This document shows, in pieces, positions 1 to 3,368 of a stretch of 8,900 bases of DNA; within the stretch, counting starts at the first letter, position 1; the number at the start of each line of letters is the position of its first letter. The notes under the pieces were generated by a model that was given only the letters and a program-made list of their open reading frames with translations, had not been told where the DNA came from and searched no databases. This stretch comes from a virus (lineage: Duplodnaviria > Heunggongvirae > Uroviricota > Caudoviricetes), in the IMG/VR virus record IMGVR_UViG_2703718832_000005. One strand, 5' to 3'. The translations under genes and the position numbers were made by a program.

Positions 1-1248
1 ATGGCACTGAATATTCCATTCAGAAATGCGTACTATCGTTTTGCATCCAGTTACTCATTTCTCTTTTTTATTTCCTGGTCGCTGTGGTGGTCGTTATACG
101 CTATTTGGCTGAAAGGACATCTAGGGTTGACAGGGACGGAATTAGGTACACTTTATTCGGTCAACCAGTTTACCAGCATTCTATTTATGATGTTCTACGG
201 CATCGTTCAGGATAAACTCGGTCTGAAGAATCCGCTCATCTGGTGTATGAGTTTCATCCTGGTCTTGACCGGACCGTTTATGATTTACGTTTATGAACCG
301 TTACTGCAAAGCAATTTTTCTGTAGGTCTAATTCTGGGGGCGCTCTTTTTTGGCCTGGGGTATCTGGCGGGATGCGGTTTGCTTGACAGTTTCACCGAAA
401 AAATGGCGCGAAATTTTCATTTCGAATATGGAACAGCGCGCGCCTGGGGATCTTTTGGCTATGCTATTGGCGCGTTCTTTGCCGGCATATTTTTTAGTAT
501 CAGTCCCCATATCAACTTCTGGTTGGTCTCGCTATTTGGCGCTGTATTTATGATGATCAACATGTGTTTTAAAGATAAGGATCACCAGTGCGTAGCGGCG
601 GATGCGGGAGGGGTAAAAAAAGAGGATTTTATCGCAGTTTTCAAGGATCGAAACTTCTGGGTTTTCGTCATATTTATTGTGGGGACGTGGTCTTTCTATA
701 ACATTTTTGATCAACAACTTTTTCCTGTCTTTTATGCAGGTTTATTCGAATCACACGATGTAGGAACGCGCCTGTATGGTTATCTCAACTCATTCCAGGT
801 GGTACTCGAAGCGCTATGCATGGCGATTATTCCTTTCTTTGTGAATCGGGTAGGGCCAAAAAATACATTACTTATCGGTGTTGTGATTATGGCGTTGCGT
901 ATCCTTTCCTGCGCGCTGTTCGTTAACCCCTGGATTATTTCATTAGTGAAGCTGTTACATGCCATTGAGGTTCCACTTTGTGTCATATCCGTCTTCAAAT
1001 ACAGCGTGGCAAATTTTGATAAGCGCCTGTCGTCGACGATCTTTCTGATTGGTTTTCAAATTGCCAGTTCGCTTGGGATTGTGCTGCTTTCAACGCCGAC
1101 TGGGATACTCTTTGACCACGCAGGCTACCAGACAGTTTTCTTCGCAATTTCGGGTATTGTCTGCCTGATGTTGCTATTTGGCATTTTCTTCCTGAGTAAA
1201 AAACGCGAGCAAATAGTTATGGAAACGCCTGTACCTTCAGCAATATAG
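1..1248 (+). CDS. MFS oligosaccharide:H+ symporter, LacY/OHS family (host chromosomal gene)
   Basis: 415-aa ORF starting at window base 1 with many hydrophobic segments. Aligns by eye to LacY, including counterparts of E126/R144 (FTEK...GTARAWG), E269 (VVLEAL), R302 (MALRIL) and K319/H322/E325 (KLLHAIEVP). Substrate cannot be read from sequence. Confidence 0.85.
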   Translation: MALNIPFRNAYYRFASSYSFLFFISWSLWWSLYAIWLKGHLGLTGTELGTLYSVNQFTSILFMMFYGIVQDKLGLKNPLIWCMSFILVLTGPFMIYVYEPLLQSNFSVGLILGALFFGLGYLAGCGLLDSFTEKMARNFHFEYGTARAWGSFGYAIGAFFAGIFFSISPHINFWLVSLFGAVFMMINMCFKDKDHQCVAADAGGVKKEDFIAVFKDRNFWVFVIFIVGTWSFYNIFDQQLFPVFYAGLFESHDVGTRLYGYLNSFQVVLEALCMAIIPFFVNRVGPKNTLLIGVVIMALRILSCALFVNPWIISLVKLLHAIEVPLCVISVFKYSVANFDKRLSSTIFLIGFQIASSLGIVLLSTPTGILFDHAGYQTVFFAISGIVCLMLLFGIFFLSKKREQIVMETPVPSAI

Positions 1249-1775
1249 ACGTAAACTTTTCCGGTTGTTGTCGATATCTCCCTATCCCTCAACCGGAAAA
1301 TAATAATACTAAAGTGCTTAGCCCTGCTAATAATCACCTAATCTAAACGCCTCATTCATGTTCTGGTACAGTCGCTCAAATGTACTTCAGATGCGCGGTT
1401 CGCTGATTTCCAGGACATTGTCGTCATTCAGCGACCTGTCCCGTGTATCACGGTCCTGCGAATTCATCAAGGAATGCATTGCGGAGTGAAGTATCGAGTC
1501 ACGCCATATTTCGCTATCAGGATTCTGTGTGATGGTTACATCGCCCGGCCCAGGGCTGTTTAGTCATCAGCGCTTTCTGACAGTGCTGAGATTTCAACCT
1601 GTTGCAGTAAAAATGAGTAGATATAAGGCAAGTGTGCTGCCAAACCTATCTTTTACGGGGTGAAGGTAGATTTCGTTTGAAGGGTATCTGGTGTCCCCTG
1701 CAGACATCTACTTGAAGCGGCAGGGGGTTGATTGGAATGGTATTTTTAGATGTGAAAAATATTTTACCCGCTATT

Positions 1776-1976
1776 TTACCCATTAGCGCGGCTTAAGAGC
1801 TTATTTTTGAATTCACAATGGTCACGATATAACCATCTTGCTCGCCCGTGGATAACTTTGGCTTTTGGCAGGTCGCCGGACTTAATCCGGTCATAGATGA
1901 AGGTTTTACCGAAGCCAGTATCGGCCATGATGAATTTCAAATCAACCAGTGAATCAGGCTGTAGTTCGTGTTGCAT
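1776..1976 (-). CDS. Excisionase / AlpA-family small DNA-binding protein
   Basis: 66-aa ORF; the segment ...FIMADTGFGKTFIYDRIKSGDLPKAKVIHGRARWLYRDH... has the size and character of phage Xis/AlpA winged-helix proteins. It is the last gene of the - strand block, where lambdoid phages place xis. ATG at 1976-1974 with a modest SD (GGAG) upstream. Confidence 0.6.
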   Translation of the reverse strand: MQHELQPDSLVDLKFIMADTGFGKTFIYDRIKSGDLPKAKVIHGRARWLYRDHCEFKNKLLSRANG

Positions 1977-2084: not shown

Positions 2085-3368
2085 TTATTCGATACGCACT
2101 CCTGGTATTTCGCCTTTTGATATTGCTAAGTCATAAATTTGCGCAGCACTATACCCATCTCGCATCCATGAATCTAAGGCGCGAATAGCCTCGCTACGCT
2201 TTTTATCTTCTCTTTCATTTTTGATATCAACGAGGACATCAACGCAATTAAGGCATATGTGGATTTTGTCCTTACATTCGATCATGGCGGCTTTTCCATG
2301 ATTTCCGCCACACAGTGAGCATAAATCTTCAGGGTCTGGCTGGTATTTCTGTAACGTNNNNNNNNNNNNNNNNNNNNNNNNNNNNNNNNNNNNNNNNNNN
2401 NNNNNNNNNNNNNNNNNNNNNNNNNNNNNNNNNNNNNNNNNNNNNNNNNNNNNNNNNNNNNNNNNNNNNNNNNNNNNNNNNNNNNNNNNNNNNNNNNNNN
2501 NNNNNNNNNNNNNNNNNNNNNNNNNNNNNNNNNNNNNNNNNNNNNNNNNNNNNNNNNNNNNNNNNNNNNNNNNNNNNNNNNNNNNNNNNNNNNNNNNNNN
2601 NNNNNNNNNNNNNNNNNNNNNNNNNNNNNNNNNNNNNNNNNNNNNNNNNNNNNNACCTGGATATAAACTCTTTGCCGGCCCCCAGTAGCCATCTGTATTA
2701 ACACGCATAACCTCACAGCCATCAAAACCATCAGTTACAAGAACGTATTCATAAGGCTCCGGCATCCTTTTGCTTACCGGAATCCAACCATCCGGAGTTA
2801 CCGGAGAGTTGCCAGCCTGAACAGTAGGCATATCCGGACCTTTGCGAATCGCCCTGGCAAGATCGATTTGGTCGTCGTACAACCAGTCACCTGTTTGCGG
2901 ATGATTGGCTTCTGCCAATTGTGCAGCCCACTCCAGGCCGTCTTTGTGTCCTTGCAGATAGTCCAGCGGTAACTCATCACTATTACTTACAGGTTCGGCC
3001 TGAAGCATGGCGGCGCGATAGGCGTTCCAGCCGACAGCTTTTCCGTGTTCAAACGCGCTGTCAAAGTCATCATCAATTTCCATCGCAGCGGGCACAGATA
3101 CCGGCGCTGGCGGGGCGGTGTAGAGCGGCATTACCTCAATATTGAAGATATCCCCCTCGCTTGGACACGCCTCTGCGCTACCGTAAACCCAAGGGTGAAC
3201 GACTCCGTTACGCTTGTTGATTAATCTGTGCGCCCACGCCACAGGCTCCGCTTCGAGCGATGCCAGCGCGATACGCGCCAGCGCCGAAGCCTCACCGCAT
3301 TGAACGTGGTCAGTTTCGATAATTTGCTGTAACTGCTCTTTGGTGAATTCTTTGGTAATAGGGCTCAT
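2085..3368 (-). CDS. Phage ea-region protein, tentatively DUF551-like, with a CxxC...CxxC cluster in the C-terminal part; interrupted by an N-run
   Basis: Frame is open from the ATG at 3368 (SD GGGAGGA 7 nt upstream) to the N-run, and again from the N-run to the stop at 2085. The segment PEPYEYVLVTDGFDGCEVMRVNTDGYWG resembles DUF551 proteins of enterobacterial prophages (from memory). The C-terminal piece carries CSLCGG...HICLNC. Frame continuity across the 297 Ns cannot be verified. Confidence 0.5.
   Translation of the reverse strand: MSPITKEFTKEQLQQIIETDHVQCGEASALARIALASLEAEPVAWAHRLINKRNGVVHPWVYGSAEACPSEGDIFNIEVMPLYTAPPAPVSVPAAMEIDDDFDSAFEHGKAVGWNAYRAAMLQAEPVSNSDELPLDYLQGHKDGLEWAAQLAEANHPQTGDWLYDDQIDLARAIRKGPDMPTVQAGNSPVTPDGWIPVSKRMPEPYEYVLVTDGFDGCEVMRVNTDGYWGPAKSLYPGXXXXXXXXXXXXXXXXXXXXXXXXXXXXXXXXXXXXXXXXXXXXXXXXXXXXXXXXXXXXXXXXXXXXXXXXXXXXXXXXXXXXXXXXXXXXXXXXXXXTLQKYQPDPEDLCSLCGGNHGKAAMIECKDKIHICLNCVDVLVDIKNEREDKKRSEAIRALDSWMRDGYSAAQIYDLAISKGEIPGVRIE
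2358..2654. other. Run of 297 N (unresolved or masked sequence)
   Basis: Literal n characters in the sequence. Length is a multiple of 3, so the ORF track reads through as 99 X residues, but the true content is unknown. Confidence 0.99.

Follow-up and report, generated by a model that had tools for sequence, protein, structure and literature searches.

Genes and features between cscB and torI

The DNA analyzed here, a stretch of 8.9 kb called the window throughout, begins with the gene of a sucrose/H+ permease, annotated as cscB or as oligosaccharide MFS transporter in matching genomes. The host csc locus has the order dsdA-dsdX'-cscR-cscA-cscK-cscB, cscB being the final gene. According to the ORF list of the window, a gap of 527 bp (1249-1775) separates cscB from an excisionase gene on the opposite strand. 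The product of the latter is 100% identical to TorI (HkaC, or gp18 in Sf6), the recombination directionality factor (RDF) deposited as PDB 1Z4H under the name 'Tor inhibition protein'; torI is also the annotation found in matching genomes. Of the gap, 440 bp belong to host intergenic DNA, 15 bp to the attR core and 72 bp to the attR arm. The features are as follows:

1-1248, plus strand: cscB, sucrose/H+ MFS permease, 415 aa (Pfam LacY_symp, E = 3e-192)
1257-1300: hairpin 1, in host DNA directly after the cscB stop codon, 11-bp stem and 22-nt loop (folding)
about 1336-1622, minus strand: decayed DUF4942 pseudogene fragment, residues ~38-151 of 281 (tblastn, DNA identity, Pfam DUF4942 E = 1.7e-4)
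1623-1688: host DNA found just downstream of argW in the unoccupied site, the B' side of attR (identical to the DA33133 empty site up to the core)
1689-1703, minus strand: attR core, the crossover region, a 15-bp copy of the argW 3' end, CTGCAGGGGACACCA (common to attR and attL of CX12; published core)
1704-1799 (1704-1775 within the gap): phage arm of attR, the xis-side arm of attP (about 94% to K-12 attR and HK620 attP)
1721-1733, minus strand: putative IHF-like site (consensus scan; plausible by position)
1776-1976, minus strand: torI, excisionase/RDF of the KplE1 family, 66 aa (100% identical to K-12 TorI and PDB 1Z4H)

The rest of the window holds a typical early-left operon encoding Ea22-like proteins, the anti-RecBCD protein Abc2, SSB, a Sak4-like annealase and Kil. 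The prophage part is a mosaic when compared to all complete E. coli genomes (best coverage 57%); DUF551-domain and Ea22-like proteins are annotated downstream of torI in matching genomes. A run of 297 masked residues (N, 2358-2654) breaks a putative 427-aa minus-strand ORF (2085-3368).

ORF content of the gap

The initial annotation had found no minus-strand ORF of 60 aa or more in the gap, except for one over the 3' end of the permease gene. This is confirmed: 1125-1337 (70 aa), overlapping the 3' end of cscB, is the only ORF of this size on that strand touching the gap, and stops interrupt all six frames of 1249-1775. Taken alone, an ORF-free stretch of 527 bp is not unlikely by chance.

Equally borne out is the view of the gap as a prophage/host junction, shown below to be an attR, devoid of an integrase gene. 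A tblastn search with recombinases had been proposed to reveal remnants of int; with IntS as query, no match better than E = 1.9 was obtained in the whole window, and no int remnant was found. Recombinase domains were also absent from the ten longest stop-free peptides of the spacer searched against Pfam. By ORFs, IntS tblastn and Pfam, an integrase gene or pseudogene adjoining xis, as in modules of the lambda type, is missing. The segment 1360-1520, considered as a decayed recombinase, was dropped, both IntS tblastn and Pfam being negative, and the region corresponds to the DUF4942 relic. No tRNA or tmRNA genes were found in the window, which contains just the 15-nt core and a 16-nt fragment of argW.

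Host DNA downstream of argW

The host part of the gap (1249-1688) is the intergenic DNA found between cscB and argW. Window 1516-1703 was joined to the body of argW from CX12 to give a predicted attB, which was found uninterrupted in 1,415 prophage-free genomes out of the 5,426 complete genomes of E. coli. In strain DA33133 the predicted attB is 100% identical, and the annotation reads cscB, 440 bp, tRNA-Arg, yfdC. The host part, along with the 3' end of cscB, occurs in 2,645 genomes, essentially the csc+ population. Thus, the host flank of the core is the sequence adjoining argW in unoccupied sites. Conservation of the spacer as host DNA in prophage-free strains had been named in the initial annotation as evidence against its own reading, and this is largely what is seen, 1249-1703 (86% of the spacer) being conserved host intergenic DNA in such strains.

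A decayed pseudogene makes up over half of this host DNA. A tblastn search with the intact DUF4942 protein aligned residues 76-151 at 50% identity (E = 1e-19) across an in-frame stop, and residues 38-65 in a different frame, as a consequence of a frameshift. At the DNA level, 1336-1622 is 70-76% identical to intact DUF4942 genes residing elsewhere, and PGAP calls a pseudogene at the fragment in several genomes. Intact DUF4942 is the terminal gene of CP4-57-like islands, which carry Ag43, antirestriction, RadC/JAB and YeeU-CbtA genes. To judge by these relatives, the fragment is the relic of a CP4-57-like integrative island, and part of the host DNA. Its presence suggests that an older integrative island once resided at argW in the csc+ lineage, possibly in connection with the way in which the csc genes came to replace dsdC-dsdX'. 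The host DNA also features a weak terminator-like hairpin (1627-1641, minus strand).

The attR core and the phage arm

The sequence TGGTGTCCCCTGCAG at 1689-1703 is the reverse complement of the 3' end of argW, and is the sole long string common to the junction in the window and to the attL/argW region of a sibling prophage carried by strain CX12. Compared with the published KplE1 core CTGCAGGGGACACCAT (PMC2951348), 15 of 16 nt agree, and the string also matches the 'attP core' of HK620. The remaining mismatch, at the 16th nucleotide, stems from the base on the host side, which is a different one in csc+ strains. The junction thus carries a core copied from the 3' end of argW, and its duplicate is found at the attL of the sibling. 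In K-12, the pseudo-tRNA fragment pawZ is annotated at the equivalent 15 nt.

A four-way alignment separates the two sides of the core. To the left, the window is identical to the unoccupied site of DA33133, unlike K-12 or HK620. To the right, it is about 94% identical to the attR of K-12 KplE1 and to the attP of HK620, and unlike the tRNA body found in attB. The alignment places the boundary to the base: host DNA through 1688, core at 1689-1703, phage DNA from 1704 on.

The phage arm includes the last 24 nt of torI, and core, arm and torI together are 96-98% identical to the free phages HK620, HK633, IME10, Sf6 and Kapi1. The primer attR-IHF2 delimits an attR of 135 bp, which was reported to undergo recombination in vitro in the presence of IntS, TorI and IHF (PMC3509656). 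It could be placed at 1780-1799 on the minus strand with one mismatch, and therefore the functional arm reaches about 24 nt into torI. By both alignment and primer site the arm is homologous to K-12 attR and HK620 attP, the attP repeats included. These repeats are perfect direct copies of TATTTTACCC at 1760-1769 and 1772-1781, and coincide with the annotated attP repeat of HK620 (1441-1463). The int-side arm holds motifs of the TATTTTACCC type four more times (twice as GGGTAAAA, twice as TTTTAYCC), and one copy overlaps the -10 box of intS. Since the arm-type site P'1 has been reported to overlap the intS -10 box (PMC2951348), this position fits the reading of the repeats as arm-type sites, and from the shared motif we infer that the TATTTTACCC repeats may be bound as such by IntS. 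The phage arm also contains the right half of an inverted repeat (GCAGGGG, 1720-1726) and the putative IHF site at 1721-1733 (minus strand), proposed on the basis of its position, as matches to the IHF consensus are no more frequent in the window than by chance.

A 45-aa ORF (1646-1783, minus strand) starts within the 3' end of torI and, past the attR arm and the core, ends in host DNA. Its counterpart in the free phage is 'hkaB', annotated in HK620 across the attP core. This ORF is probably not a real gene, because its C-terminus would change upon integration.

Order of torI, attP and intS

KplE1, HK620, Sf6, CUS-3 and Kapi1 have in common a recombination module targeting the tRNA-Arg gene argW (PMC2951348, PMC3509656). 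In Sf6, HK620, KplE1 and Kapi1 attP lies between int and xis, so that the two genes are found at opposite prophage ends once integrated (PMC8787464, PMC2951348). The HK620 annotation shows the same order, with int at 50-1207, the attP core at 1368-1383 and hkaC (torI) at 1457-1657. As attP is located between xis and int, integration at argW leaves torI at attR, and intS at attL, about 40 kb off.

It had been assumed in the initial annotation that int should follow xis beside attL. This is the lambda arrangement and does not apply here: HK620 has the order hkaC (torI), attP core, int, and in the naming used in the KplE1 literature the junction is attR, not attL. The missing int next to torI is the normal layout, and provides no evidence for an int-deleted or grounded prophage. 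We conclude, with a probability of roughly 0.93, that the gap consists of host DNA followed by the attR of a P22-like/lambdoid prophage inserted into the tRNA-Arg gene argW by means of the KplE1/HK620/Sf6/Kapi1 module.

The far end of the prophage

In CX12, the sibling prophage shares the cscB-spacer-torI junction of the window at 99.4% identity. At a distance of about 42.8 kb, beyond what looks like a complete prophage, intS, tRNA-Arg and yfdC follow one another. The exact junction is also carried by two further siblings, IMG/VR contigs about 98% identical to the window. The provirus UViG_2718217795_000002 (41,292 nt) has the exact 54-nt junction plus the int-side arm, and its int end exhibits a full-length IntS ORF, tRNA-Arg(CCT) and yfdC. 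The two ends of the module were monitored in complete E. coli genomes, with the following numbers of genomes showing a match:

torI/attR arm: 1,405 genomes
intS/attL arm: 1,998 genomes (1,860 at a coverage of at least 80%, 138 below)
both pieces concatenated (union): 1,999 genomes

As the union exceeds the genomes with the intS arm by one, about 1,404 of the 1,405 torI+ genomes carry intS-type DNA. From these counts, a full-length intS is to be expected in between about 90% and 99.9% of torI+ genomes, the lower bound placing all partial intS matches in torI+ genomes.

The prophage had been regarded in the initial annotation as likely int-deleted (cryptic or grounded), or else dependent on a recombinase encoded elsewhere. 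The latter option is supported by siblings and genome counts, while the former was drawn from what is the normal layout of the family. The window is indeed free of any integrase gene or remnant, the far end of this prophage lies outside of it, and decayed elements do exist at argW, such as the 10-kb remnant KplE1 in K-12 and one of about 7 kb in O157:H7 Xuzhou21. Yet torI without a neighbouring int is how the KplE1/HK620 family is designed, and nearly all genomes with the torI arm also have intS-type DNA. Even the K-12 remnant retains both intS and torI and still excises, and in the decay observed in O157:H7 it was intS that was kept, torI and attR being lost. Moreover, the early-left operon (Abc2, SSB, Sak4-like annealase, Kil) is apparently intact in the window. 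Loss of int from this prophage is thus held to be very unlikely. By analogy with the siblings, intS of this particular prophage should be located at its far end, beyond the 8.9-kb window.

The argW remnant of O157:H7 Xuzhou21 (about 7 kb, locus 12405-21392) contains a DUF4942 fragment, a gene for a serine 'recombinase family protein', P22-like ejection and tail-needle genes, intS and argW. Having kept intS and argW and no torI/attR arm, this excisionase-less remnant is probably fixed in place. A different arrangement was observed in strain ET151 (NZ_CP100996.1, 1516165-1517771), where torI and intS are neighbours within about 1.6 kb, in an attP-like fashion, and where matches were obtained at three places of the record altogether. 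This fits either tandem argW prophages or an assembled excised form.

Hairpins and repeats

The stem of hairpin 1 is formed by TTTTCCGGTTG and CAACCGGAAAA, at 1257-1267 and 1290-1300. The hairpin folds at -20.9 kcal/mol (z = -4.0), and none of 200 shuffled sequences folds as well. It had been described as CCGGTTG-N23-CAACCGG at 1261-1297; the hairpin is real, and in fact longer, with an 11-bp stem, but the 7-nt arms are 22 nt apart. Its DNA is found in all csc+ genomes, empty sites included. No U-run follows, hence hairpin 1 is not a canonical intrinsic terminator. It is possibly a 3' stem-loop or a terminator serving the convergent gap.

Hairpin 2 pairs CCCCTGC (1695-1701) with GCAGGGG (1720-1726). 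The sequence exists as had been noted near 1695-1727, though with a spacing of 18 nt rather than 19, and its folding is not clearly better than that of shuffled sequences (plus strand, z = -0.9; minus strand, z = -2.0). The hairpin is half core and half arm, and is conserved in K-12 and HK620; its role, if any, would be that of a protein-binding symmetry near the core.

TGAAGG motifs occur at 1661 and 1678, both in host DNA present also at empty sites. With 7 copies vs. 4.9 expected, the window shows no enrichment of the motif, and the copy at 1678 is polymorphic in a sibling strain. On these grounds TGAAGG was rejected as a phage arm site. The suggestion that hairpins and TGAAGG repeats could be att or arm remnants does not hold for the repeats and hairpin 1, as these reside in host DNA; hairpin 2 alone touches the att core.

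The spacer had also been thought to encode a small RNA, or to act as an independent regulatory element with hairpins and TGAAGG repeats as its functional parts. Such a role could be invoked for hairpin 1, markedly more stable than its shuffled versions, and RNAs derived from 3' ends can arise between convergent genes. Against it, no Rfam family matches within 1249-1775, even at E values up to 1; the TGAAGG motif is neither enriched nor constant among strains; hairpin 2 does not surpass shuffled sequences on the plus strand and is half derived from the tRNA core; and over half of the host part is the decayed pseudogene. A small RNA or regulatory element of this kind is very improbable, and the gap remains best described as host intergenic DNA joined to attR. 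Outside the gap, a hit to the Rfam family STnc130 (1926-2053) was rejected, its score (25 bits vs. a gathering score of 55) being mostly driven by a terminator hairpin.

A split argW sequence upstream of torI

The sequence GGAATCGAACCTGCAA (16 nt, 1996-2011), found 20 nt upstream of the torI start, is identical to the stretch of argW that lies next to the core in the tRNA gene. Thus, the window contains the final 30 nt of argW as two abutting halves, the 15-nt core at 1689-1703 and the 16-nt block at 1996-2011. The halves keep the order and orientation that they have in the tRNA gene, have nothing but the attR arm and torI (292 bp) between them, and are the only exact matches to argW of at least 10 nt in the window. 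The 16-nt block is invariant in HK620, K-12 KplE1 and one IMG/VR sibling, and falls inside the cII-dependent 'phage integration' promoter annotated in HK620. No description of it was found in the literature searched. We suggest, tentatively and as a rather doubtful reading, that the block may be the footprint of an ancestral attP with an identity block of at least 30 nt, later split by a cassette made of arm plus RDF, which would have given rise to the xis-attP-int layout; or that it may be a secondary or regulatory site retained in a cII-type promoter.

A strong hairpin, AAGCCGCC-TGAT-GGCGGTTT, is located further upstream of torI (2025-2044), with a T-run behind it on the minus strand. Conservation of the recombination module ceases around 2035. 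Past this point K-12 and the IMG/VR sibling differ from the window and HK620, and by this comparison ~2035 is a mosaic boundary.

Relation to known recombination modules

The window and K-12 KplE1 (CPS-53) feature an identical RDF, the same argW target and core, attR arms about 94% identical and the primer site of the functional attR; in both, the prophage genes end with torI, which points outwards across attR. They differ in the host flank, formed by cscB and the DUF4942 relic in the window and by dsdC in K-12, with the 16th core nucleotide differing accordingly, and in the prophage body, a mosaic with a P22-like/lambdoid early region in the window, a 10-kb remnant in K-12.

The P22-like phages HK620, Sf6, Kapi1, HK633 and IME10 (Lederbergvirus) share with the window core, arm and torI (96-98% identity). 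In HK620, with attP located between xis and int, the annotated attP core corresponds to window 1689-1703 and the attP repeat to 1760-1781. In contrast to free phages of the HK620 type, the site in the window is in the integrated attR form, with host DNA on the left. The window shows no structural genes to be compared with those of P22-like phages, and the late region of the CX12 sibling is contractile-tail-like, not that of a P22 podovirus. In CX12 (locus 12144-12299, 14000-36000) a baseplate/contractile-tail-like late region and two tRNA genes (Asn, Thr) were observed, and no late region of the P22 podovirus type; therefore, the argW module is common to different virion types.

The int-xis module of lambda is similar in many respects, as it is a tyrosine-integrase system with a core, arm-type sites, IHF and a small winged-helix RDF, and has lambdoid early-left surroundings. 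Lambda has int and xis together on one side of attP, so that both genes reside at one prophage end and share transcription from pL. In modules of the KplE1 type, by contrast, attP separates int and xis, the two are transcribed independently, and the junction bound by TorI is the one on the int side.

Integration and excision

IntS, TorI and IHF recombine attL and attR into attP and attB, five TorI sites being located in attL; intS is expressed from a promoter of its own within attL, on which IntS and TorI act as repressors, and torI is transcribed separately; excision dependent on IntS, TorI and IHF has been shown for K-12 and HK620 substrates (PMC2951348, PMC3509656). Excision from the attR of this window would, by analogy, follow the same mechanism. 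In the free phage the order would be torI, attP, intS, and recombination at the core would split torI from intS. The former would remain at attR, the latter would move to the far end, by attL and the intact argW gene, with its promoter overlapping attL. IntS would be kept at a low level by autoregulation, and TorI would be made from its own promoter. At excision, TorI would bind attL and IHF would bend the DNA, and IntS may bridge the arm-type and core sites of attL and attR, exchanging strands inside both cores. The products would be a restored cscB-argW site (attB, as in DA33133) and a circular phage with torI-attP-intS.

Implications for annotation

The architecture described here is already known, and knowledge of the mechanism is unchanged. 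The finding matters mainly as a correction: the observation of an excisionase gene without a neighbouring integrase gene was correct, and reflects a known architecture. About a quarter of complete E. coli genomes contain a member of the family, and Stx phages have likewise been reported to insert at argW. Annotators and prophage callers expecting int beside xis would mislabel members of this family as integrase-less or grounded. The integrase of this prophage is to be sought beside argW, at the other end.
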